Shown here: one piece after another, positions 14,863 through 39,760 of the stretch | How positions within the stretch are numbered: position 1 is the stretch's first letter | Layout: every line of letters begins with the position of its first letter | Sequence record: OQ703102.1 | Strand: one strand, 5' to 3' | Source of the DNA: Escherichia phage vB_EcoP-R1 | Length of the DNA stretch: 40,875 nt | The notes under the pieces: model-generated | Seen by the model: only the letters and a program-made list of their open reading frames with translations | Databases searched by the model: none | What the model was told of the DNA's origin: nothing | Position numbers and translations under genes: made by a program

Positions 14863-15057
14863 ATGATTGAGTTAGACTTCAAGAATGAGGTCCTTAAAGC
14901 CTCTCCTATCGTCGGGACCGCTGCGGCTGATGGTGCCAGTCGGTTCTTCTTCGGACTTACACTGAACGAATGGTTCTACGTTGCAGCTATCGCGTATACC
15001 GTTGTCCAGATTGGTGTGCTAGTCTACAAAACGATTAAAGGAGGTGGTAAAACATGA
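14863..15057 (+). CDS. 17.5: Holin, class II (gp17.5 homolog)
   Basis: 64 aa; ...LKASPIVGTAAADGASRFFFGLTLNEWFYVAAIAYTVVQIG... parallels T7 gp17.5; hydrophobic helices. Confidence 0.85.
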   Translation: MIELDFKNEVLKASPIVGTAAADGASRFFFGLTLNEWFYVAAIAYTVVQIGVLVYKTIKGGGKT

Positions 15058-15317
15058 CGCAGATGGACTTAGAGAAGTTCCTCTTAATGCTAGATACTGA
15101 ACGTGCTAGACTCATGCTGCAAGACCTGCGGGATGACTCTAAGCGTTCACCTCAGCTTTACAACGCCATTGAGAAGCTACTGGCTCGTCACAACTTTGTG
15201 TTAAGCAAGGTGTCTGTGGACGAGAAGACGCTGGCTGATATGGAGGCCCTGAACGCAGAGTACGATAAGGTGCTTTCAGCGACTGAGGATAATGACACCG
15301 GGTATGGTGTTCAATAA
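15054..15317 (+). CDS. 18: Terminase small subunit (gp18 position)
   Basis: 87 aa (T7 gp18 89 aa) between holin and Rz; overlapping start/stop (ATGA). Confidence 0.7.
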   Translation: MTQMDLEKFLLMLDTERARLMLQDLRDDSKRSPQLYNAIEKLLARHNFVLSKVSVDEKTLADMEALNAEYDKVLSATEDNDTGYGVQ

Positions 15318-15894: not shown

Positions 15895-17661
15895 ATGTCT
15901 AAGAAAACACCTGTCGAAAGACAGGCAGAAATGACCCAAAGGATGAGGGACGACTTCGTGTTCTTCATCTTCGTTCTCTGGAAAGCTCTTAGCCTTCCGG
16001 CTCCAACCCGCTGCCAGATAGATATGTGTAAGAAGCTGGCTGCTGGGGATAATCGCCGCTTCATCCTTCAGGCGTTCCGTGGTATTGGCAAGTCGTTTCT
16101 GACCTGTGGTTTCGTGGTCTGGAAACTATGGAACAACCCAGACTTAAAGTTCATGATTGTGTCGGCCTCAAAGGAACGAGCCGATGCTAACTCCATCTTC
16201 ATCAAGCGAATAATCGACCTCATGCCTCAGCTTAAGGAACTCAAACCTAAGCAGGGGCAGCGAGATGCGGTTATCAGCTTCGACGTTGGACCAGCCAAGC
16301 CAGACCACTCACCTTCGGTTAAGTCCGTTGGTATCACTGGTCAGTTGACTGGTAGTCGTGCTGACATCCTGATTGCCGATGACGTGGAGGTTCCGAACAA
16401 CTCAGCGACTCAGTCTGCACGAGACCGTCTGTCAGAGCTTGTGAAAGAGTTCGACGCTATCCTGAAGCCGGGAGGTACAATCATCTATCTGGGTACTCCT
16501 CAGAACGAGATGACCTTGTATCGTGAGCTGGAAGGCCGTGGGTACACCACTACCATCTGGCCTGCTCGTTATCCACGCGACAGGAAGGACTGGCAGTCTT
16601 ACGGCGACCGTCTGGCACCGATGCTTCAGGCAGAGCTGGAAGAGGACCCTGAGTCCTTCTACTGGCGTCCGACCGATGAAGTACGATTCGATGATACGGA
16701 CCTGAAGGAACGTGAGCTGTCCTATGGTAAAGCTGGCTTCGCTCTACAGTTCATGCTTAACCCTAACCTGAGTGATGCTGAGAAGTACCCTCTGAAGCTC
16801 CGTGACCTTATCGTAGCCGACTTGGACCCAGCGTCTAGCCCAATGGTATACCAATGGCTTCCTAACCCTCAGAACAAGCGTGAGGACGTTCCTAACGTTG
16901 GACTCATGGGTGACTCATACCACACGTATCAGACTGTAGGTTCTGCCTTCAGTTCGTACACCCAGAAGATTCTAGTCATTGACCCTAGTGGTCGTGGTAA
17001 GGATGAAACTGGTTATGCGGTACTGTACCAGCTAAACGGCTACATCTTCGCTATGGAAGTTGGCGGTATGCGAGGTGGCTATGAAGACTCTACGCTGGAA
17101 GCCTTGGCTAAGATTGGTCGTAAGTGGAAGGTCAACGAATACGTCATTGAGGGTAACTTCGGTGATGGTATGTACCTTGAGCTATTCAAGCCTGTAGCTT
17201 CCCGTATCCATCCTGCGGCTGTAACTGAAGTGAAGAGTAAGGGTCAGAAGGAACTCCGCATCTGTGACGTTCTGGAGCCTATCATGGGGTCTCACCGACT
17301 TATCGTTAACGCTGCTGCTATCGTCCAAGACTACCAGTCTGCCTCTGATAAGGATGGTGTTCGTAATCCTATCTACTCTCTCTTCTACCAGATGACACGT
17401 ATCTCTCGTGAACGTGGAGCATTGGCACACGATGACCGACTTGATGCGCTGGCTATCGGTGTACAGTTCTTCGTTGAGTCTATGGCTAAGGATGCCAACA
17501 AAGGCGAACGTGAAGTCACTGAGGAGTGGCTGGAGGAACAGATGGAGAACCCACGGAAAGGCTTCGAGTCCATCCACACTGAGTTCTGGGACAATGGGGT
17601 CCGGGTAACTCACGATACGGACGACGAGCTTGGACTAGGGTCCTACGTTACGTTCCACTAG
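15895..17661 (+). CDS. 19: Terminase large subunit (gp19 homolog)
   Basis: 588 aa (T7 gp19 586 aa); conserved position; RBS GGAGGGA. Confidence 0.93.
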
Positions 17662-27991: not shown

Positions 27992-28443
27992 TGGCCCAAT
28001 GGTCTGCAAAACGGGGGCACTCTGTGGGTGCCTACCGCTCTGGACTTGAAGCCAAGAACCAGCAGTGGCTGGAACAGAACGGCGTCAAAGCGGAGTACGA
28101 AAGCCATTATATCAACTATGTGATTCCGGCTTCCGACCACAAGTACACACCAGACTTTATCCTTCCTAACGGTATCATCGTGGAGACCAAAGGTATCTTC
28201 GATAGTGATGACCGTAAGAAGCACCTTCTGGTACGAGAACAGCACCCAGAGTTAGACATTCGGTTCGTGTTCTCAAGTTCCCGCTCCAAGTTATACAAAG
28301 GGTCTCCGACCACGTATGGCGCATGGTGCGAAAAGAACGGCTATAAGTATGCCGATAAGTTCATCCCGGTTGAGTGGCTTCGAGAGGCGACTGTACGTCT
28401 GCCTTCAGGTATCCTCATCCCCAAGAAGAAAGGAGTTAAGTGA
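27991..28443 (+). CDS. 3: Endonuclease I, Holliday junction resolvase (gp3 homolog)
   Basis: 150 aa; ...YVIPASDHKYTPDFILPNGIIVETKGIFDSDDRKKHLLVREQHPELDIRFVFSSSRSKLYKGSPTTYG... parallels T7 gp3. Confidence 0.92.
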   Translation: MAQWSAKRGHSVGAYRSGLEAKNQQWLEQNGVKAEYESHYINYVIPASDHKYTPDFILPNGIIVETKGIFDSDDRKKHLLVREQHPELDIRFVFSSSRSKLYKGSPTTYGAWCEKNGYKYADKFIPVEWLREATVRLPSGILIPKKKGVK

Positions 28444-28913
28444 TGACTCAGAAATATAGACTTAAAGTTAGCATCTACGGGTGGCCTAGAGGTACTATCG
28501 TCACAAAATGTGCGAAAGACCCTGTACCAGTGCCTGGACTTGTTCTGGTGGAATCCACTGAGCGTGGCCTCTACAAGCACGGAGCAGCGGGGCATAACAG
28601 TCAGCCTGACGGAATGTGGGGGGCATGGGTTTCAAATGAATATCTTGAGGAAATTGGAGAGGATAAACCTCAAGTCCTGCCAGCCTCAAGCGTCCCTCCT
28701 GTCACCGTTAAACGTGAAGTCCTGACCATCGACAAGATTGGTGTAGGCCAGACGTTCATCGTCCACGGGAAGCCTGAAGAAGTTTACGTGAAGATTAGCA
28801 ACTCACACGTCTTCAACCATAAGCGTCTCCAGATGCACACCACGGACGCACAGCGCTTCACCCAGCACCTGAATCTAGTGGTCGTAGAATTGGTGGTGTA
28901 CAATGGTAAGTAA
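28443..28913 (+). CDS. Hypothetical protein inserted between endonuclease I and amidase
   Basis: 156 aa from ATG 28443 (track start 28440 is a GTG); RBS AAAGGAG; no counterpart in T7, where gene 3.5 follows gene 3. Confidence 0.55.
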   Translation: MTQKYRLKVSIYGWPRGTIVTKCAKDPVPVPGLVLVESTERGLYKHGAAGHNSQPDGMWGAWVSNEYLEEIGEDKPQVLPASSVPPVTVKREVLTIDKIGVGQTFIVHGKPEEVYVKISNSHVFNHKRLQMHTTDAQRFTQHLNLVVVELVVYNGK

Positions 28914-29361
28914 GGTACAGTTCAACCCACGGTCCCGGACTGACGCTATCTTCGTTCACTGTTCGGCTACCAAGCCAGAGATGGACATCGGGGTAGAGAC
29001 CATCCGTATGTGGCACAAGCAGCAAGGATGGCTGGACGTAGGCTACCACTTTATCATCAAACGTGATGGCACTGTGGAAGAGGGTCGCCCGGTCAATGTC
29101 GTAGGGTCACACGTTAAGGACTGGAACTCCAAGTCCGTAGGCGTCTGCCTTGTAGGTGGAATTGACGCTAAGGGCAAGTTTGAAGCTAACTTCACTCCGG
29201 CCCAGATGAACTCACTGCGCACCAAGCTGGCTGACCTGAAGGCCCTGTATCCTCAGGCAGAAATAAAAGCACACCATGATGTAGCACCTAAGGCGTGTCC
29301 AAGTTTCGACTTGCAGCGCTGGCTATCTACCAATGAACTGGTAACTTCCGACCGTGGTTAA
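28903..29361 (+). CDS. 3.5: N-acetylmuramoyl-L-alanine amidase / T7 lysozyme (gp3.5 homolog)
   Basis: 152 aa; ...TDAIFVHCSATKP...WLDVGYHFIIKRDGTVEEGR...VGVCLVGGIDAKGKF.ANFTPAQM...AHHDVAPKACPSFDL.RW...NELVTSDRG nearly collinear with T7 gp3.5. Confidence 0.95.
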   Translation: MVSKVQFNPRSRTDAIFVHCSATKPEMDIGVETIRMWHKQQGWLDVGYHFIIKRDGTVEEGRPVNVVGSHVKDWNSKSVGVCLVGGIDAKGKFEANFTPAQMNSLRTKLADLKALYPQAEIKAHHDVAPKACPSFDLQRWLSTNELVTSDRG

Positions 29362-29666: not shown

Positions 29667-31370
<1,704 letters not shown>

Positions 31371-31614: not shown

Positions 31615-32046
31615 ATGAGGACTTGTAGTAGATGTGGCTCTACAAAGGAGTCCACTGAGTTCAGGAAGACAAATGGGTGGTGCATATCCTGTGTTCGTGA
31701 GGATAATAGGTCGCGATATCATCGAAACAAAGGTACAGAGGCCGGTGAGGCGCATCGCCTATCTGCCCGTAAGTCTTGGCTTAAGAAAGCCTATGGTCTC
31801 ACACTTGAGGAATATGACACTATGTTCGATAGTCAAAAGGGCAGATGCGCTATATGCTCAGACATTATCTTCAAGCATGGGTCTATTGAGAGTAAGAATA
31901 ATGTAGCCCACGTTGACCATTGCCATGACTCAGGTATTGTTAGGGGATTGCTATGTGGTACATGTAATAGCGCACTTGGTAAGTTCGGTGACAAGGTAGC
32001 CGTGCTTAGGGCTGCTATAACGTACTTGGAGAAATATAATGTTTAA
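31615..32046 (+). CDS. HNH endonuclease, endonuclease VII-type (putative homing endonuclease)
   Basis: 143 aa; Cys-rich N-terminus (CSRCGS...CISC) plus CAICSD...HVDHCHDSGIVRGLLCGTCNSALG, the typical endonuclease-VII/HNH zinc-binding core. Confidence 0.8.
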   Translation: MRTCSRCGSTKESTEFRKTNGWCISCVREDNRSRYHRNKGTEAGEAHRLSARKSWLKKAYGLTLEEYDTMFDSQKGRCAICSDIIFKHGSIESKNNVAHVDHCHDSGIVRGLLCGTCNSALGKFGDKVAVLRAAITYLEKYNV

Positions 32047-34210
32047 TCTCAACTCATTCTATGGCACAGATATAGAGACTGACGGTCTACTAGACACTGT
32101 GTCACAGTTCCATTGTGGTGTTATCATTAACGCTGGAACTCAGGCTACTGAGAAATATGGTGTTGCCCCTATGACTGGGCTGACAGGTGGATTCAAAGAG
32201 TACATAGACCGCATAGAATCTATTATGGCATCCACTGACGGTATGCTGGTTCTGCACAATGGTGTGAACTATGATATACCAGCCTTGAAAATACTGAAGA
32301 AGAAATACTTTGGTAAGAACCTAAATGTGAATAAGGGTCGAATTATTGATACCTTGGTACTTGGTCGCTTGATGTATCCAAACATTAAGTTCTCAGACAT
32401 GGGCGCGGTGAAAGCTGGTCGTCTGCCACCTAAGATGATGGGACGCCAGTCTCTTGAGGCTTGGGGCTATCGTCTCGGTGAGATGAAAGGTGAGTACAAA
32501 CACGATTACGTTGCCAAGTGCAAGGCTGAAGGTATCGAATATAAGGCTGGGGACGAATGGTTGTTCCCGTCTCAGGAGATGCTGGACTATAACGTTCAAG
32601 ACGTTGTGGTCACACTGGCGTTGTTCAAGAAGTTCCTGACTGACAAGTATTACTTCCAGTCTGAACAGTTTGCTTTCGACCAGATTTATGCGTTGCGTCT
32701 GGAACATGATGCTGCGTGGACCTGTGCGAAGATGGAGCGTAACGGCTATCCGATGAACACCGAGATGGTCGAAGGCTTATATCGTGAACTCACCGTCAAA
32801 CGTGCAGAGTTGTTGGACAAGCTGCGTTCGACTTTCGGTAGCTGGTATGCACCAAAGGGAGGCAAGGAGTTCTTCAAGCACCCACGGACAGGCAAGGACC
32901 TTCCGAAGTATCCGCGAGTCGTGTATCCTAGGGTCGGGTCAGTATTCAAGAAGCCGAAGAACAAAGCTCAACGCTTAGGTCTGGAGCCTTGCGAGTTCGA
33001 CTCACGAGACACGATGGAAGGAGCACCGTTCACGCCAATCACTTACGTTGAGTTTAATCCGGGAAGCGGAGACCACTTAGCGAAAGTCTTGATGGAGCGT
33101 GGTTGGGAGCCTGTGGACTTCACTGACACTGGGAAACCTGTAGTAGATGACGAGACGTTAGAACACGTTAAGCTACCAGACGCAGAGGCTCAGGCTTGCG
33201 TAGAGCTGGTCCGTGAGTATCTGGTAGTCCAGAAGCGCATCGGTCAGGCGGCTGAAGGTAAGAACGCATGGTTGAAACTTGTAGGTCCAGACGGACGTAT
33301 GCACGGTTCAATCAACCCATGCGGTGCAGTAACAGGACGTGCGACTCATAGTTCACCAAACATGGCTCAGGTCCCTGCTAACGGTGCTCCGTATGGTGAG
33401 ATTTGCCGTGGTGCTTTCGGTGCAGCTTGGAACAAGACGGATGGTAAGCCAGACCCTTGGATTCAAGTGGGTGTGGATGCTTCAGGTCTTGAGCTTCGTT
33501 GTCTGGGGAACCGAGCAGCTCCGTTTGATGGTGGTGCCTATGCGAAGACTGTGGTCGAAGGTGACATCCACTGGGCCAACGCAGTAAACGCTGGTTTAGC
33601 ACCTAACGTCCCACGCGATAAATCGAGCCACGACCATGATGCTTTCCGTAACAACGCTAAGACGTTCATCTATGCGTTCCTGTATGGTGCAGGGGCCGCT
33701 AAGATTGGACTGATAGTCGGCGGTGGTAAGAAGGAAGGTTCAGCTCTCATGAAGAAATTCATTGAGGGTACACCAGCCATCAAAGACCTCAGGGAAGCTG
33801 TGAGTAATACGTTAATCTCAGACTCTAAGTGGGTAGATGGTGAGAACATCGTTAAGTGGAAACGCCGTTGGCTGCGTGGACTTGACGGTCGCCGTATCCA
33901 CATCCGGTCGCCACACTCAGCACTGAACGCCTTACTTCAAGGTGACGGTGCGGTAGTCTGTAAGCACTGGATGGTACTGACGGAGAAGAAACTTGAGGAA
34001 GCTGGCTACGGTAATGGCTGGGATGGTGACTTTGCGCTAATGGCTTGGATTCACGACGAATTGCAGATTGCGTGTCGTACTCAGGAGATTGCCGAAGAAG
34101 TCGTCCGTATTGCACAAGAAGCAATGCGTGAGGTAGGACGTTTTTATAACTTCAAGTGTGATCTTGATACGGAGGGTAAGATTGGACCAACGTGGAAAGA
34201 GTGTCACTGA
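32039..34210 (+). CDS. 5: DNA polymerase, family A (gp5 homolog)
   Basis: 723 aa; ...SQFHCGVII, LEAWGYRLGEMKGEYK, DYNVQDVVVT, HPRTGK.LPKYPR, FKKPKNKAQR, GAVTGRATHS.PN.AQ.P, DASGLELRCLG, KTFIYAFLYGAG, KRRWL.GLDGR..H.RSPH.ALN.LLQ, GWDGDFA.MAW.HDE.Q parallel T7 gp5. Confidence 0.97.
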   Translation: MFNLNSFYGTDIETDGLLDTVSQFHCGVIINAGTQATEKYGVAPMTGLTGGFKEYIDRIESIMASTDGMLVLHNGVNYDIPALKILKKKYFGKNLNVNKGRIIDTLVLGRLMYPNIKFSDMGAVKAGRLPPKMMGRQSLEAWGYRLGEMKGEYKHDYVAKCKAEGIEYKAGDEWLFPSQEMLDYNVQDVVVTLALFKKFLTDKYYFQSEQFAFDQIYALRLEHDAAWTCAKMERNGYPMNTEMVEGLYRELTVKRAELLDKLRSTFGSWYAPKGGKEFFKHPRTGKDLPKYPRVVYPRVGSVFKKPKNKAQRLGLEPCEFDSRDTMEGAPFTPITYVEFNPGSGDHLAKVLMERGWEPVDFTDTGKPVVDDETLEHVKLPDAEAQACVELVREYLVVQKRIGQAAEGKNAWLKLVGPDGRMHGSINPCGAVTGRATHSSPNMAQVPANGAPYGEICRGAFGAAWNKTDGKPDPWIQVGVDASGLELRCLGNRAAPFDGGAYAKTVVEGDIHWANAVNAGLAPNVPRDKSSHDHDAFRNNAKTFIYAFLYGAGAAKIGLIVGGGKKEGSALMKKFIEGTPAIKDLREAVSNTLISDSKWVDGENIVKWKRRWLRGLDGRRIHIRSPHSALNALLQGDGAVVCKHWMVLTEKKLEEAGYGNGWDGDFALMAWIHDELQIACRTQEIAEEVVRIAQEAMREVGRFYNFKCDLDTEGKIGPTWKECH

Positions 34211-34241
34211 CCCTCGAACCAAGACCTTGCGCTTCCACACA

Positions 34242-34535
34242 ATGCCTACTGGATGTATCGTCTGCGTGTCCCACAAGAGGAACCAAGATGGATACTTCCG
34301 GTATTCTATGGGAAGCTACAGGAAGGGCAACAAGTTCGCCTTCATGTTTCACAGATGGGTGTGGGAACAGAAGCGCGGACCTATACCGGATGGCTATGAG
34401 ATAGACCATTTGTGTTTGAATCGTGGGTGCTGTAACGTAGAACATCTACAATGTATTCCAAAGCGTGATCACGTCATCAAGACGAACCGTGAGCGCAAAC
34501 TTATTAAGAAGGAGAAGACTAATGGCTATTACTAA
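34242..34535 (+). CDS. HNH endonuclease (gene 5.3 position)
   Basis: 97 aa from ATG 34242 (track ORF 34158..34535 starts inside DNAP); ...GYFRYSMGSYRKGNKFAFMFHRWVWEQKRGPIPDGYEIDHLCLNRGCCNVEHLQCIPKRDH...N is a classic HNH core. Confidence 0.75.
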   Translation: MPTGCIVCVSHKRNQDGYFRYSMGSYRKGNKFAFMFHRWVWEQKRGPIPDGYEIDHLCLNRGCCNVEHLQCIPKRDHVIKTNRERKLIKKEKTNGYY

Positions 34536-34806
34536 ACGTATTCGTGTAAGTTTCGACCTGAAGATGGTTGTCAGCTCAAAGGAAGAAGATACCATGTGTC
34601 GCCAACTGGCTGAGATGACTAAAGCCTACGCTGAGGGTGAGAAGCTGGATGGACTTCAGGTGGCTATGGTCAAAGCAGCAATCGAGTCAGGCCCTGAGTC
34701 TGCCCTTGAAATTGCCCTCAAGAAGACCATCAAGGAGGAGCTGGTAGACGCCTTTGGTGATGACCAGTTCGGAGTATCTAACCTGCGATTCGAGGTCAAG
34801 CAATGA
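34522..34806 (+). CDS. 5.5: gp5.5-position protein
   Basis: 94 aa from ATG 34522 (MAITKRIRVSFDLK...); N-terminus resembles T7 gp5.5 as I recall it; start overlaps the HNH gene end. Confidence 0.55.
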   Translation: MAITKRIRVSFDLKMVVSSKEEDTMCRQLAEMTKAYAEGEKLDGLQVAMVKAAIESGPESALEIALKKTIKEELVDAFGDDQFGVSNLRFEVKQ

Positions 34807-35012
34807 GTGAATACTTACGGGTCCTAGCGGCCCTTAAGTCCTGCCCGAAGACCTTCCAGTCTAACTATGTGCGCAACAACGCTGCACTTGTGGCTGAGGC
34901 TGCGAGTCGTGGACATCTAAGCTGCCTGTCTATGGATGGGCGTAACAACGGTGCGTGGGAAATTACCGCTGCTGGCACCAAGTTCCTGAACCAACACGGA
35001 GGCTGTCTATGA
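34803..35012 (+). CDS. 5.7: gp5.7-position protein
   Basis: 69 aa, same length as T7 gp5.7; ...KSCPKTFQSNYVRNNAALVAEAASRGH...; assigned by position and size. Confidence 0.6.
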   Translation: MSEYLRVLAALKSCPKTFQSNYVRNNAALVAEAASRGHLSCLSMDGRNNGAWEITAAGTKFLNQHGGCL

Positions 35013-35458
35013 AGATACCTGAAAGTCTGAAAGAGCTGGTCCTTGACATGGGTGAGTGCGAGAAGGAGCACCGCAAGTACGCTGAGTTCTACGCATCTTG
35101 GTCATACACCTTGACAGAGAAGGACGTTGAGTCATACACCGAGTCTCCCGCTGAGGCTTATGAGTGGCGTCCATTCATCGGACTGACCATCGTAGCTAGC
35201 GGTATGTGGGATGACAGATACGGTTCAGAGGTAAACGACTGGGACGTGTGCCGCCAAGTTGAGAAGGAGACTGAGATGTCTTCAAACTTCTGGAACCTGA
35301 TGTCACACCTAAACTCAGAGGACAACGACAAGGCCCATGAGTTCGCCAACAAATGGCTGAAGCCTGAGGTGACTCTCGAACGTATAGAGGAGCCGAAAGT
35401 GCCCTTGATGCCATATGTAGTCGCTATGGCTACAGGAGGTCTGGACGATGGGTGCTGA
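35009..35458 (+). CDS. Acidic hypothetical protein at the gene 5.9 position (much longer than T7 gp5.9)
   Basis: 149 aa from ATG 35009 (overlaps the 5.7 stop as ATGA); Glu/Asp-rich; T7 gp5.9 is 52 aa. Confidence 0.5.
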   Translation: MKIPESLKELVLDMGECEKEHRKYAEFYASWSYTLTEKDVESYTESPAEAYEWRPFIGLTIVASGMWDDRYGSEVNDWDVCRQVEKETEMSSNFWNLMSHLNSEDNDKAHEFANKWLKPEVTLERIEEPKVPLMPYVVAMATGGLDDGC

Positions 35459-36317
35459 GAAGAAGATAGCTCTTGTTCTTGATGGCGATTACCTAGTATT
35501 CTCTTCTATGGCTGCTGCCGAGGACGAGACAGACTGGGGTGATGACATCTGGACCCTTATCTGCGACCATGAGAAGGCTCGCCGTATCCTTGAGAACACC
35601 ATCGCTGAAATCGTTAAGAAGCGCAAGGCGTGGAAAGACGCTAAGATTGTGATGTGCTTCACCGACGATTACAACTGGCGTAAGGACGTACTTCCTACCT
35701 ATAAGGCTAACCGTAAGGGTTCTCGCAAGCCTGTAGGTTACAAGAAGTTCGTAGCCGAAGTGATGGCTGACCCACGGTTCAACAGCTTCCTGCGTCCCAC
35801 GCTTGAGGGTGATGACTGTATGGGTATCATCGGGACCAGACCTCAGATTGTCGGATGTGACCATGCGGTTCTGGTGTCCTGTGATAAGGACTTCAAGACC
35901 ATACCGAACTGTGAGTTCTTCTGGTTGACCACTGGTGAAATCCTGAGTCATACGACTGCTGAGGCAGACTACTGGCACATGGAGCAGACCATCAAGGGCG
36001 ATACTACAGATGGCTACGGCGGGATTCCGGGGATGGGTGAGGACACCACTCGTGCGTTCCTTGACGAGCCGTACTACTTCGTTCAGGAGAGCCGTGAGCT
36101 TAAGACTGGTAAGAACAAAGGCCAGATTAAGACTGAGTGGAAGAAGTATCCGAAGCGTGAAGACATGACGCTGTGGGACTGCATGGTTACACTGGCTGCT
36201 AAGGCTGGCATGACCGAGGAGGAACTTCTGGTCCAAGCTCAGGTCGCTCGTATTTGTCGAGCCTCCGACTACGACCCTAAGTCCAAGGAGGTCATCCTAT
36301 GGACACCATCCATGTAA
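35448..36317 (+). CDS. 6: 5-prime to 3-prime exonuclease (gp6 homolog)
   Basis: 289 aa; ...WRKDVLPTYKANRK...KPVGY..F......LEGDD.MG.I......VSCDKDFKTIPNCEFFW.TTG.IL...DYWH...QTIKGD.TDGY.GI.G...KTGKNKGQ...TLWDC....AKAGMTEE parallel T7 gp6. Confidence 0.92.
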   Translation: MGAEKKIALVLDGDYLVFSSMAAAEDETDWGDDIWTLICDHEKARRILENTIAEIVKKRKAWKDAKIVMCFTDDYNWRKDVLPTYKANRKGSRKPVGYKKFVAEVMADPRFNSFLRPTLEGDDCMGIIGTRPQIVGCDHAVLVSCDKDFKTIPNCEFFWLTTGEILSHTTAEADYWHMEQTIKGDTTDGYGGIPGMGEDTTRAFLDEPYYFVQESRELKTGKNKGQIKTEWKKYPKREDMTLWDCMVTLAAKAGMTEEELLVQAQVARICRASDYDPKSKEVILWTPSM

Positions 36318-36391
36318 TTTACTGGGTCGGACTTCTGGCCCTTTACTGCATGTACAAGTGGTTCGGGTCGAACAACCGCCCTAAACACTGA
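36299..36391 (+). CDS. Putative small hydrophobic peptide (gene 6.3 position)
   Basis: 30 aa MDTIHVIYWVGLLALYCMYKWFGSNNRPKH; RBS AAGGAGG 7 nt upstream; overlaps the 3-prime end of gene 6. Confidence 0.3.
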   Translation: MDTIHVIYWVGLLALYCMYKWFGSNNRPKH

Positions 36392-36443
36392 GTCTAGCCG
36401 ATAGTCATATCCTATCAATCCAACAGTCATCCATAGGTGAAAC

Positions 36444-36466
36444 ACTAAACTATCACTATAGGGACT
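36444..36466 (+). promoter_or_regulatory. Phage RNAP promoter (phi6.5-like)
   Basis: CACTAAACTATCACTATAGGGAC; +1 G at 36461; followed by an inverted-repeat leader (GACTTTAGGACC...GACTTTAGTC). Confidence 0.8.
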
Positions 36467-36527
36467 TTAGGACCTAAGATATGACTATAAGATAGACTTT
36501 AGTCTTAACTTAAAGAGGAGATTCAAG

Positions 36528-36800
36528 ATGGCTATTACTGCTATTGAAAACGTTGTTAAGCAGTTACAGGAAGAAAGACTTGATGTCCCGAACATCTCAC
36601 AGTCTGCTATCCAGTTCCTGCACGTATTGTTCAACGCAAGCTACGCTGAGAAGATGGGAGCTATCAGTCTCCTCAAGCAGCAAGGCTACAGCGATGCGTT
36701 CATTGCCGGGTTCATCAAGGGTCTCCAGTATTGTTCTGACACTCTCGACTCTGCGATTGCTATGCGTCGTGAGCTGAAAGATACCGTTCAGTTTGATTAA
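36528..36800 (+). CDS. gp6.5-position protein
   Basis: 90 aa; RBS AAAGAGGAG; assigned by position. Confidence 0.5.
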   Translation: MAITAIENVVKQLQEERLDVPNISQSAIQFLHVLFNASYAEKMGAISLLKQQGYSDAFIAGFIKGLQYCSDTLDSAIAMRRELKDTVQFD

Positions 36801-36814
36801 CTGTAGGAGGGACT

Positions 36815-37039
36815 ATGTGTTTCAGTCCGAAGATTAGCACTCCGAAGCCTTCGGTCCAAGCACCTGAACCAGCACCTCTGAGTGAGGAAGTTGCGTCAGT
36901 TGACATCGGGGCTGAATCAGATGTGGACACCAACGAGACCCAAGGTATCAAAGACCTGAAGGTCAAGAAGGAGTCTGCACCTAAAGATAAATCGTCAGTT
37001 AGCCGCGCCATGCGAGCCTCTGGCGTCAACATGGGGTAA
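36815..37039 (+). CDS. 6.7: gp6.7-like virion protein
   Basis: 74 aa; N-terminal MCFSPKI.TPK and EPAPL motif resemble T7 gp6.7. Confidence 0.7.
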   Translation: MCFSPKISTPKPSVQAPEPAPLSEEVASVDIGAESDVDTNETQGIKDLKVKKESAPKDKSSVSRAMRASGVNMG

Positions 37040-37043
37040 GACA

Positions 37044-37448
37044 ATGCTACCATATCTCAACTCACGCGAAGGTCGCCATATGTGCGCTTGTCGCCTCTGG
37101 GAAGACGGGCAGTCTAACTTCAAGTCATTCGAGGACTTCAAGGCTCATACTTACCGTATGGCTGACGAGTTCGACGGTGAAGAATACACAATCTACGATG
37201 CCTCAGGTCAACCAGTAGCGTATCTCTACATGCTGGCTACCGCATCTTGGCACCGACCGACTCCCGGTCTTGACCTTTCAATAGTCGCTATTCGTCGTGA
37301 CTCGCAGTCCTCCCGCAAGGTTCTTGAGACTGTCAGACACATCATAGACGAAGAGTGCAAGCGTTGGGGTCTTGGCTGGTATTCTCGTGTCAAGCATGTT
37401 TCCGGGTCGGTAGACATCGTAACAACTAAGGAGATTAATCGTGGGTAA
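37044..37448 (+). CDS. gp7-position protein
   Basis: 134 aa (T7 gp7 133 aa); assigned by position and size. Confidence 0.5.
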   Translation: MLPYLNSREGRHMCACRLWEDGQSNFKSFEDFKAHTYRMADEFDGEEYTIYDASGQPVAYLYMLATASWHRPTPGLDLSIVAIRRDSQSSRKVLETVRHIIDEECKRWGLGWYSRVKHVSGSVDIVTTKEINRG

Positions 37449-37689
37449 ATCAATCAGTAAGGCCTTCAAGAAAGTGGTGAAAAGTACGTTAGGGACCGTT
37501 GGTCTTGGCTCTGATGACGCGCCTAAGGTTGTTGAGGCTAAGACCCCAGCAGCACCAGTGGAAGTACCGAACGACAAAGTGGAGGATGTGGATACTGAAG
37601 CAACCGCATCTGATGAGAAGAAAGTGAAGCGTTCCGGTAAGCGTAGCCTTCAGGTCTCTCGCACCTCTGGTGGCGGTATTTCTATATGA
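37441..37689 (+). CDS. 7.3: gp7.3-like tail/virion protein
   Basis: 82 aa, Lys/Ala/Val-rich, ends ...RSLQVSRTSGGGISI (T7 gp7.3 ends similarly as I recall); GTG start. Confidence 0.65.
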   Translation: MGKSISKAFKKVVKSTLGTVGLGSDDAPKVVEAKTPAAPVEVPNDKVEDVDTEATASDEKKVKRSGKRSLQVSRTSGGGISI

Positions 37690-38102
37690 CAGGGTGCATC
37701 GAGTGGAAGTGGGCCAAATCCTCAGCAGGATACGGGCAGAAGCGTATAGACGGTAAGTTAGTGTATATGCACCGACTCGCTTACGCCGATGCACATGGGC
37801 CAATACCAGACGGAATGCTCGTCCGTCATAAGTGTGATAATCCAGCATGTTTTAACGTAAACCACTTAGAGTTAGGAACTCAGCGTGATAACATGCAGGA
37901 CGCCTCAAAGCGTGGTCGAGTCAATAAAACCAAAATGGCTAGAGGTGAGGACCAAGGGTTATCGGTTTTAACAGAAGACCTTGTTCGAGAAATCCGCAAG
38001 TCAACAGTAGGTTGTACAACACTGGCTCGTGAGCTGGGCGTTAGCAAGTCTACAGTTTTGCGGGTTCGCCAAGGTAAAACATGGAGGCACGTAGATGGCT
38101 GA
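37686..38102 (+). CDS. HNH endonuclease with C-terminal helix-turn-helix (gene 7.7 position)
   Basis: 138 aa; ...GYGQKRIDGKLVYMHRLAYADAHGPIPDGMLVRHKCDNPACFNVNHLELGTQRDN... HNH core; C-terminal ...TLARELGVSKSTVLRVRQGKTW is HTH-like. Confidence 0.75.
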   Translation: MTGCIEWKWAKSSAGYGQKRIDGKLVYMHRLAYADAHGPIPDGMLVRHKCDNPACFNVNHLELGTQRDNMQDASKRGRVNKTKMARGEDQGLSVLTEDLVREIRKSTVGCTTLARELGVSKSTVLRVRQGKTWRHVDG

Positions 38103-39663
38103 ACGTGAAGGATTTGCCGCTGAAGGCGCGAAGTCAGTTTATGATAGGCTGAAGAACGGACGACAACCTTACGAGACCAGAGCACAGAACTGCGCTGCCG
38201 TGACCATACCGTCGCTATTTCCGAAGGAATCTGATAACTCCTCGACGGAATATTCAACTCCGTGGCAAGCTGTAGGTGCTCGCTGTTTGAACAACTTGGC
38301 TGCAAAGCTGATGTTGGCATTATTCCCTCAGTCACCGTGGATGCGACTGACAGTCTCCGAATATGAGGCCAAGACCTTGAGTCAGGACTCAGAGGCTGCT
38401 GCTCGTGTTGACGAAGGGCTGGCTATGGTCGAGCGTGTGTTGATGGCCTACATGGAGACCAACAGTTTCCGTGTGCCATTGTTCGAAGCTCTGAAGCAGC
38501 TTATCGTCTCCGGTAACTGTCTGCTTTACATTCCAGAGCCTGAACAGGGTACTTACAGTCCTATGCGAATGTACCGCTTAGTGTCATACGTTGTTCAACG
38601 TGATGCTTTCGGTAATATCTTGCAGATTGTGACTCTCGACAAGGTAGCGTTTAGTGCTCTACCGGAAGACGTGAAGTCACAACTCAACGCAGACGACTAT
38701 GAGCCTGACACAGAGCTGGAAGTTTATACGCACATCTACCGTCAAGACGACGAGTATCTACGTTATGAGGAAGTGGAAGGCATTGAGGTAGCAGGGACCG
38801 ATGGTTCCTACCCACTGACTGCATGTCCATACATCCCGGTACGAATGGTTCGACTGGATGGTGAAGACTATGGTCGTTCTTACTGCGAGGAGTATCTGGG
38901 TGACCTGAACTCGCTGGAGACGATTACAGAAGCTATCACCAAAATGGCTAAGGTAGCCTCCAAGGTGGTGGGCCTCGTTAACCCGAACGGTATCACGCAA
39001 CCTCGTCGGCTGAACAAGGCGGCTACAGGTGAGTTCGTTGCCGGTCGCGTTGAGGACATCAACTTCCTGCAACTGACTAAGGGTCAGGACTTTACGATTG
39101 CCAAGTCGGTGGCTGACGCTATCGAGCAACGTTTAGGCTGGGCCTTCCTTCTTAATAGTGCTGTTCAGCGCAACGCCGAGCGAGTCACTGCTGAAGAGAT
39201 TCGTTATGTTGCTGGCGAACTGGAGGCGACCTTAGGTGGCGTGTACTCAGTACAATCCCAAGAGCTTCAGTTACCTATCGTCCGTGTGCTGATGAACCAA
39301 CTTCAGTCTGCTGGCATGATTCCTGACCTTCCGAAAGAAGCGGTAGAGCCTACTGTCTCCACTGGTCTGGAAGCGTTAGGTCGTGGTCAGGACTTGGAGA
39401 AGCTAACTCAGGCGGTTAACATGATGACTGGTCTTCAGCCGCTATCTCAGGACCCGGACATCAACTTGCCGACCCTTAAGCTACGACTCCTGAACGCTCT
39501 GGGTATCGACACCGCCGGCCTTCTGCTGACTCAGGACGAGAAGATGCAACGTATTGCTGAACAATCCGCTCAAGGAGCTGTGGTCAACGGTGCGTCTGCT
39601 GCTGGTGCTAACATGGGTGCTGCTGTAGGTCAGGGAGCTGGTGAGGACATGGCTCAAGCCTAA
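38095..39663 (+). CDS. 8: Portal / head-to-tail connector protein (gp8 homolog)
   Basis: 522 aa (T7 gp8 536 aa); conserved position between 7.7 and scaffold. Confidence 0.93.
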   Translation: MAEREGFAAEGAKSVYDRLKNGRQPYETRAQNCAAVTIPSLFPKESDNSSTEYSTPWQAVGARCLNNLAAKLMLALFPQSPWMRLTVSEYEAKTLSQDSEAAARVDEGLAMVERVLMAYMETNSFRVPLFEALKQLIVSGNCLLYIPEPEQGTYSPMRMYRLVSYVVQRDAFGNILQIVTLDKVAFSALPEDVKSQLNADDYEPDTELEVYTHIYRQDDEYLRYEEVEGIEVAGTDGSYPLTACPYIPVRMVRLDGEDYGRSYCEEYLGDLNSLETITEAITKMAKVASKVVGLVNPNGITQPRRLNKAATGEFVAGRVEDINFLQLTKGQDFTIAKSVADAIEQRLGWAFLLNSAVQRNAERVTAEEIRYVAGELEATLGGVYSVQSQELQLPIVRVLMNQLQSAGMIPDLPKEAVEPTVSTGLEALGRGQDLEKLTQAVNMMTGLQPLSQDPDINLPTLKLRLLNALGIDTAGLLLTQDEKMQRIAEQSAQGAVVNGASAAGANMGAAVGQGAGEDMAQA

Positions 39664-39681
39664 ACTATCACTATAGGAACT
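39659..39681 (+). promoter_or_regulatory. Phage RNAP promoter (phi9-like)
   Basis: CCTAAACTATCACTATAGGAACT overlapping the portal stop; +1 G at 39676. Confidence 0.8.
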
Positions 39682-39760
39682 TAGACAAGATTCACAAAGC
39701 ATTAGGCCGGGTGAGACTCCCGGTCGGTTCCTATCATCAACTTAAAAGGAGAATGACTCA

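Follow-up and report, generated by a model that had tools for sequence, protein, structure and literature searches.

The two HNH genes considered here belong to Escherichia phage vB_EcoP-R1 (sequence record OQ703102.1; the whole stretch of 40,875 nucleotides is referred to as the window), and occupy the slots between genes 5 and 5.5 and between genes 7.3 and 8. Their closest counterparts are already described in other phages. Gene 5.3 of phage T3, a free-standing HNH gene known for "collaborative homing", lies downstream of the polymerase gene 5 and encodes a protein of about 100 aa that is HNH_3 only. The enzyme I-TslI (phages PhiI/W31) and K1F gp5.3 are intron-borne relatives of the T3 gene 5.3 product, and T3 gp5.3 and the intron-encoded I-TslI reportedly cut intronless polymerase genes at one same position. 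In the other slot, both T7 and Citrobacter phage CR44b carry gene 7.7, whose product joins HNH_3 to a C-terminal helix-turn-helix (HTH). Structurally, the nearest reference is I-HmuI (PDB 1U3E), an intron-encoded HNH nicking enzyme of the Bacillus phage SPO1. T7 gp5.3 shares the 5/5.5 slot, also belongs to an endonuclease family and is dispensable, but it is a PD-(D/E)XK protein with an unrelated fold and sequence.

Both genes of the window are of this known type, and almost identical genes already carry a homing endonuclease annotation. We consider both to be free-standing homing endonuclease genes, selfish cassettes beside essential genes, at a probability of about 0.8; the initial annotation, which offered a homing enzyme as one of its readings, was right in this respect. 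In the proposed cycle, a rival phage without the cassette would co-infect the cell, and the HNH enzyme would nick or cut this rival's DNA site-specifically, in the essential gene next to the slot. Recombinational repair off the carrier template would then copy the cassette, along with part of its flanks, into the rival genome, and base changes at the target would protect the genome of the carrier. The pair had been described as bracketing the late replication genes, a description that carries no functional meaning. Genes 5.5, 5.7, 6 (exonuclease), 6.5, 6.7, 7 and 7.3 lie between them, mostly host-takeover and virion genes, and what matters for the placement of each HNH gene is the conserved essential gene next to it, polymerase or portal.

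Domains, conservation and distribution of the two HNH proteins

The reading frames at 34242-34535 (97 aa, with the EIDHLCLNRGCCNVEHL core) and 37686-38102 (138 aa, with the RHKCDNPACFNVNHL core) were correctly delimited, stop codons included, and on the T7-group map they fall in the gene 5.3 and 7.7 slots as claimed. That they are classical HNH proteins is borne out by domain, fold and residues alike. The Pfam family HNH_3 (PF13392), whose cutoff is 24.8 bits, matches the 5.3-slot protein at E=1.3e-18 and 66.8 bits over model positions 2-45 of 46, and the 7.7-slot protein at E=1.3e-15 and 57.2 bits over positions 1-46, so that 44 to 46 of the 46 model positions are covered. Weaker zf-His_Me_endon matches accompany both, and the PHROG families of both proteins are HNH endonucleases.

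The key residues of the 5.3-slot protein are H56, N60/N65, H68, H77 and N82, together with Cys5, 58, 63 and 64. Among 29 homologs of this type, the columns conserved at 90% or more include C5, H56, C58, N60, C63, N65, H68, H77 and N82, and the window protein has all of them. The key residues of the 7.7-slot protein are C4, H48, C50, N52, C55, N57, H60 and N69. Across 51 homologs of its type C4, G38, H48, C50, D51, N52, C55, H60, L61, G64, N69 and D72 are invariant, N57 is conserved in at least 90%, and again the window protein has all. H48 and H56 align with His75 of I-HmuI, and N69 and H77 with its Asn96; the two I-HmuI residues are said to act as the general-base histidine and the distal metal-binding asparagine. 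A loss of the catalytic His/Asn residues, the check that had been proposed for these proteins, is seen neither in the homolog alignments nor in the comparison with I-HmuI.

The AlphaFold models (pLDDT 83.6 for the 5.3-slot protein, 89.2 for the 7.7-slot protein) both have I-HmuI (1u3e, probability 1.00; TM 0.59 for the former) as top PDB match, followed by I-PpoI. Going by these predicted structures, both proteins are beta-beta-alpha-metal nucleases of the HNH_3, I-HmuI-like kind. A sequence search of the PDB with the 5.3-type protein returned chance matches only, and the fold search was needed. I-HmuI differs from the window proteins in several respects: identity is only about 20-26%, the window proteins are free-standing, and the 5.3-type lacks the DNA-binding extension. 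Additionally, I-HmuI lacks the Cys/His cluster (C..HxCxNxxCxNxxHL) of the window proteins, which suggests a structural zinc site in them. The C-terminal HTH ascribed to the 138-aa protein finds agreement in weak Pfam HTH matches at residues 103-127, in three short helices at residues 97-128 of the confident model, in an alignment to I-HmuI over residues 22-135 that takes in the C-terminal DNA-binding region, and in the annotation of an HTH at aa 108-129 of the CR44b protein. The 5.3-slot protein is a short form, in which the C-terminal HTH is absent.

The comparison with described genes is close for both. The 5.3-slot protein is 84.4% identical to the T3 gene 5.3 product over 96 residues, and its gene sits between the polymerase stop and gene 5.5, as orthology to T3 gene 5.3 requires; judged by sequence and position, it is the ortholog of that gene. 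K1F gp5.3, at 49% identity, differs in being intron-encoded, 131 aa long and equipped with a C-terminal HTH. The label "gene 5.3" holds for the slot and fails for T7: orthology to T7 gp5.3 (L007, 2984-3340) was ruled out, as BLASTP finds no similarity and the T7 protein belongs to the PDDEXK_5 family. The 7.7-slot protein aligns with T7 gp7.7 over 133 aa (46.6% identity, E=1.3e-41), both genes lie between 7.3 and 8, and their sequences mark them as true homologs. With gene 7.7 of CR44b, annotated as a "predicted homing endonuclease", it shares 97% of nucleotides and about 98.6% of amino acids, and no difference of substance was seen.

Substitutions point to continued selection on protein sequence. 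The ratio of non-synonymous to synonymous divergence (dN/dS) is 0.03-0.04 for the 5.3 gene against 22664BS1, MopsHU1 and EcSW4 (18-19 synonymous to 3-4 non-synonymous changes), and 0.03-0.05 for the 7.7 gene against its closest intact relatives (9-11 to 1-2). Both HNH genes are therefore maintained as proteins.

The distribution is that of free-standing elements, present or absent at a fixed site among close relatives and with clean junctions. The 7.7 allele of the window is carried by five of the 192 records that share its flanks, and the 5.3 gene by 18 of 220. The two genes assort independently, with CR44b having the 7.7 gene only and 22664BS1, MopsHU1 and EcSW4 the 5.3 gene only. This, and the 93-99% identity of the intervening DNA regardless of carriage, rules out joint movement of the pair as an island.

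This distribution also bears on the suggestion that one of the HNH proteins cooperates with terminase. Some HNH proteins do assist terminase, helping to cut concatemers in HK97-like cos phages, and this general precedent is all that speaks for such packaging cofactors here. The terminase genes of the window are far from the HNH genes at 34.2 and 37.7 kb (Table 1), most close relatives package normally without these genes, and in T7 the genes of both slots, 7.7 and the one in the 5.3 position, are dispensable and can be deleted (PMC12153263, PMC9825161). The proteins themselves are of the I-HmuI/HNH_3 type, relatives of homing endonucleases, and neither gene is adjacent to terminase and conserved across relatives in the manner of HK97 gp74. 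A packaging role is thus highly implausible for either gene.

The slot between genes 5 and 5.5 and the polymerase site

The slot downstream of the polymerase gene is a hotspot with several kinds of occupants. A T3-type HNH gene is found there in the window phage, KM02, 22664BS1, MopsHU1, EcSW4, SH3, EFA-1, EcoIv41 and ZG49; a PDDEXK_5 gene in SFPH2, YZ1, Zappy and L033; and a 159-bp reading frame in vB_EcoP_F. The slot is empty in CR44b, SH4, ST31 and EcoDS1. The PDDEXK proteins of four relatives (L013, L014, L020, L033) are about 48-50% identical to T7 gp5.3. As genes of this T7 kind share the slot with the HNH genes, unrelated endonuclease families compete there.

A likely target can be read from phage K1F, where gene 5 has a 598-nt interruption containing gp5.3, an HNH relative of the window gene. 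This gp5.3 has been placed within a putative polymerase intron (PMC4925675). By Rfam RF00028 the interruption is a full-length group I intron at E=1e-6, a score below the gathering threshold. Translation of the exons places the insertion after the His codon of WVH/DE, the slash marking the junction, which corresponds to 34054/34055 of the window, with the polymerase stop following after 156 nt and the ATG (34242) after 188 nt. The Rfam coordinates of the intron are 10 nt off; the protein-based junction was kept because it restores WVH/DE and obeys the rule of an exon U and an intron-terminal G. In the window itself a group I intron in the polymerase gene was ruled out, as Rfam gives no match and the 723-aa reading frame is continuous.

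The 5.3-slot enzyme would cut the polymerase gene at this intron site, as its T3 ortholog reportedly does, and in the window the site bears a carrier-specific variant, the Ile codon ATT at 34049-34051. The sequence TGG-GTN-CAY occurs at the site in none of nine T3-type HNH carriers, as compared with 14 of 16 non-carriers. Seven of the carriers read Trp-Ile-His, as in T3 (TGG ATN CAC), and the other two Phe-Val-His. For the T3 ortholog, site-specific cleavage is reported in PMC10448857, citing Bonocora & Shub 2009. By orthology to T3, it is rather likely that the target of the 5.3-type enzyme is this motif-C site of the polymerase.

The start of the window gene has been altered. The ATG at 34242 has no Shine-Dalgarno sequence (SD), and the frame is open upstream to a GTG at 34158. 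An alternative start, the TTG at 34182, stands 5 nt past a GGAGGG within the polymerase gene, and is the position chosen by the annotators of MopsHU1. T3, EFA-1 and EcoIv41 have an SD and ATG 11 codons earlier, a start that a 12-nt deletion removed in the allele group of the window, KM02, 22664BS1, MopsHU1 and EcSW4 (34211-34241 and 34171-34184). The window allele thus differs from T3 gene 5.3 in lacking this start and the 11 N-terminal residues of T3, and also in a slightly different C-terminal tail, which overlaps gene 5.5. In KM02, the copy closest to that of the window (99% of nucleotides), codon 24 has become a premature stop (GGA to TGA, equivalent to window 34311-34313). The KM02 copy (L010/L022) is not annotated in its record and appears freshly inactivated.

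An allele deprived of its canonical start and SD, and a nonsense mutation in the closest relative, are what one would expect of inactive relics, once homing endonuclease genes but now without cutting activity and drifting to loss; the homing cycle itself predicts decay after fixation. However, both reading frames of the window are intact and keep all conserved catalytic and zinc residues, and a dN/dS of 0.03-0.05 over a dS of 0.1-0.5 indicates that constraint at the protein level has continued. We regard relic status as quite unlikely for the two window genes.

The slot between genes 7.3 and 8 and the portal gene

Most relatives have an empty slot between genes 7.3 and 8, which in K1F and EcSW4 reads ATTTCTATTTAAGGAGGTGACTAATGGCTG. 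The 7.7 cassette exactly replaces the 15-nt spacer of this empty site, with overlaps on both sides (Table 1); on the right, the HNH stop overlaps the start of gene 8 by 8 nt. Set exactly between the two genes, the HNH and HTH gene supplies the ribosome-binding site of the portal. An ST31-type 7.7 allele ends in the same 3' sequence. At the identical 7.3/8 junction at least two further alleles are found, 44-48% identical in protein, one of the ST31/GA2A type and one of the T147P5/KM02 type. A lost cassette is seen in L034 (IMGVR_UViG_3300045988_000139), which has no HNH gene at 7.3/8 and keeps the last 12 nt as a scar (GGAGGCACGTAG). A scar of cassette loss as in L034 may also explain nine very short matches at 99% identity or more.

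The tight fit of the cassette in its operon, with the ATGA overlap and the portal SD inside the HNH gene, together with the strong purifying selection on both HNH genes, would suit domesticated nucleases that benefit the phage by excluding competitors (marker exclusion), by degrading host DNA or by regulating neighbour genes. Cutting a co-infecting rival is a competitive benefit in itself, and in this respect the mechanism overlaps with homing (Goodrich-Blair & Shub 1996, cited by PMC3428280). Genes of lasting benefit to the phage fit poorly with absence from most close relatives and with the decayed and lost copies of KM02 and L034. Nor do they fit with T7, in which the genes at both slots can be deleted and gp5.3 disruption mutants took over passaged populations (PMC12153263, PMC9825161). 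In T7-like phages, genes 3 and 6 are credited with breaking down host DNA, and the window phage has both. Domestication appears unlikely, and free-standing homing endonuclease genes remain our preferred reading.

If homing is at work in this slot, the target of the 7.7-slot enzyme would lie within the first tens of bases of gene 8. The reading GGA TTT at codons 6-7 of this gene (38110-38115) is shared by ten of 11 occupied genomes, across three HNH allele types, and is absent from all 12 empty ones. L034, which lacks the HNH gene and bears the scar, also has GGA TTT in gene 8. On these haplotypes, the 5' end of gene 8 is a tentative candidate for the 7.7-type target, and as a lead for the gp7.7 family the target is predicted to fall within ~20-45 nt from the beginning of the portal gene.

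Identity profiles along the sequence, taken against four relatives, place short, sharply diverged tracts next to each endonuclease gene, in a background of 94-99%. Identity to EFA-1 and CR44b falls to 68-80% over the 3' end of the polymerase gene (33900-34350), and identity to all four relatives is 77-90% over the first 150 nt of gene 8. Read from the sequences, these flank patterns fit target-site immunity or co-conversion. With sites in such tight linkage, and in genomes related to each other, they prove neither.

Several points weigh against the homing interpretation or parts of it. Common descent or co-conversion, in place of immunity, could account for the associations of flank haplotypes. 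GA2A is occupied at 7.3/8 yet reads GGGTTC at gene 8 codons 6-7, and the Ile variant of the polymerase site occurs without an HNH gene in SFPH2 and L033, both of which carry a PDDEXK occupant instead. The exact cut site of the T3 enzyme, on which the analogy for the 5.3 type draws, is taken from secondary citations. The 5.3-slot protein is the short form without the HTH, unlike the intron-borne K1F version, and expression of its gene may be weak, since the canonical SD and ATG start is lost. For T7 gp7.7, nothing is known to have been published on its function beyond dispensability (PMC12153263, PMC9825161), nor is a biochemical function published for any other protein of the 7.7 type.

Genome setting, the third endonuclease gene and significance

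The window represents the genome of a Kayfunavirus-like coliphage with the T7-group gene order (Table 1), and a T7-type endonuclease I (gene 3) is also encoded. A 9.9-kb stretch around both HNH genes matches about 300 phage records, the best being the Kayfunavirus coliphages UFJF_EcSW4, Zappy, KM02, ZG49 and others at 94-96% identity. Three GenBank records, MT350292.1 (Enterococcus phage EFA-1, UNVERIFIED_ORG), OR786095.1 (Staphylococcus phage MBBL139) and PV615262.1 (Acinetobacter phage vB_Aba_01KA), are Kayfunavirus-like genomes close to the window coliphage, and their host labels are probably wrong.

Table 1. Positions of the endonuclease genes, their parts and candidate sites, and of neighbouring genes in the window
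Feature	Position	Strand	Details
Terminase genes	15054-15317 and 15895-17661
Primase-helicase	29670-31370
Endo VII-motif (DHHRN-type) endonuclease gene, gene 4/5 slot	31615-32046	+	Pfam Endonuclease_7
DNA polymerase gene 5	32039-34210	+	uninterrupted 723-aa reading frame, no intron
Candidate target/immunity site of the 5.3-slot enzyme	34040-34069	+	polymerase gene 5 motif WIH/DE; K1F intron site
T3-gene-5.3-type free-standing HNH endonuclease gene (probable)	34242-34535	+	97 aa from ATG, stop included; Pfam HNH_3, 84% to T3
Exonuclease (gene 6)	35448-36317
gp7.3	37441-37689		VirionAssem_T7
T7-gene-7.7-type free-standing HNH endonuclease gene (probable)	37686-38102	+	138 aa; Pfam HNH_3, 46.6% to T7 gp7.7
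Left cassette junction	37686-37689	+	ATGA: gene 7.3 stop overlaps HNH start; translational coupling possible
HNH core of 7.7-slot protein	37761-37898		~aa 26-71
HTH of 7.7-slot protein	37974-38069		~aa 97-128
Right cassette junction	38083-38102	+	portal SD GGAGG 38083-38087 inside HNH 3' end
Portal gene 8 5' end, candidate target/immunity or co-conversion tract	38095-38265	+	protein nearly invariant, synonymous differences dense
Portal gene 8	38095-39663		Head-tail_con

The initial annotation counted three HNH nucleases. Two of them are the HNH_3 genes described above; the third, in the slot between genes 4 and 5, belongs to the same beta-beta-alpha-metal superfamily and is of the Endo VII/DHHRN type, not a strict HNH gene, because the central Asn is absent. 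Pfam Endonuclease_7 matches it at E=1.4e-24, with the motif at the C-terminal side (residues 55-140). By the criteria of PMC6083498, the C-terminal Endo VII motif and the presence of a separate endonuclease I group it with the DHHRN-type homing endonucleases, such as F-CphI, and not with the resolvases. It is a podovirus gene, sporadic and next to an essential gene, with no intron association here, and is probably a third free-standing homing endonuclease gene. A profile scan of all 646 six-frame reading frames gave no further HNH_3 or Endo VII frames beyond these three, and Pfam and PHROG scans of the mid-sized frames of the window gave no other homing genes, with frames below about 90 aa falling outside the Pfam scan.

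The gene goes together with the 5' allele of the window polymerase in four of 229 related records, the only ones with that allele. Over its first ~350 nt, the polymerase gene is 62-69% identical in relatives without the Endo VII gene and 98-100% in EcSW4, which has it; the rest of the polymerase gene is 96-99% identical in the relatives without it. CR44b has an HNH gene, "7.7B", in this 4/5 slot, and KM02 and EFA-1 have no endonuclease gene there. The region 31615-32400 has the appearance of a third hotspot for homing endonucleases, together with a long diverged tract, immune or co-converted.

The polymerase gene, in its first ~350 nt and its last ~300 nt, consists at both ends of divergent alleles linked to flanking endonuclease genes. 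A wider reading would take the 7.3/8 slot as the record of a full homing cycle for the gp7.7-like family, with three alleles at one insertion point, a shared synonymous "immune" haplotype in the opening portal codons and the scarred L034, and would add an endonuclease-driven modular exchange of polymerase termini, in the sense reportedly attached to "HEG islands" by Barth et al. 2023. This is possible, and we hold it as doubtful.

Other variable regions were observed in the window. The reading frame ending at 35458 (167 aa from a GTG at 34955; PHROG 4382, function not known) takes the gene 5.9 position and falls in a gap of the pairwise alignment with CR44b; it appears as another accessory indel, between 5.7 and gene 6 (region 34950-35400). 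Across the last part of the portal gene and the intergenic stretch between genes 8 and 9 (39450-39750), identity is 76-86% in EcSW4, EFA-1 and CR44b and 86-99% in KM02, which marks another mosaic boundary, with no nuclease gene noticed in association. A frame of 157 aa (28440-28913), flanked by endonuclease I (gene 3) and by the gene at 28903-29361, represents an uncharacterised accessory gene, with an end-to-end match to PHROG 16385 (function not known) and no Pfam match.

The biology of these elements is well described, and beyond correct annotation the significance of the present case is small. The appropriate annotation for the two genes is free-standing HNH homing endonuclease, of the T3 gene 5.3 type and the T7 gene 7.7 type respectively, and not packaging factor. 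Both genes are dispensable and variable, which makes their slots suitable as safe insertion sites in phage engineering, a use already made of them in T7. Additionally, the short diverged tracts beside the HNH genes mean that phylogenies built on polymerase and portal genes may be distorted.

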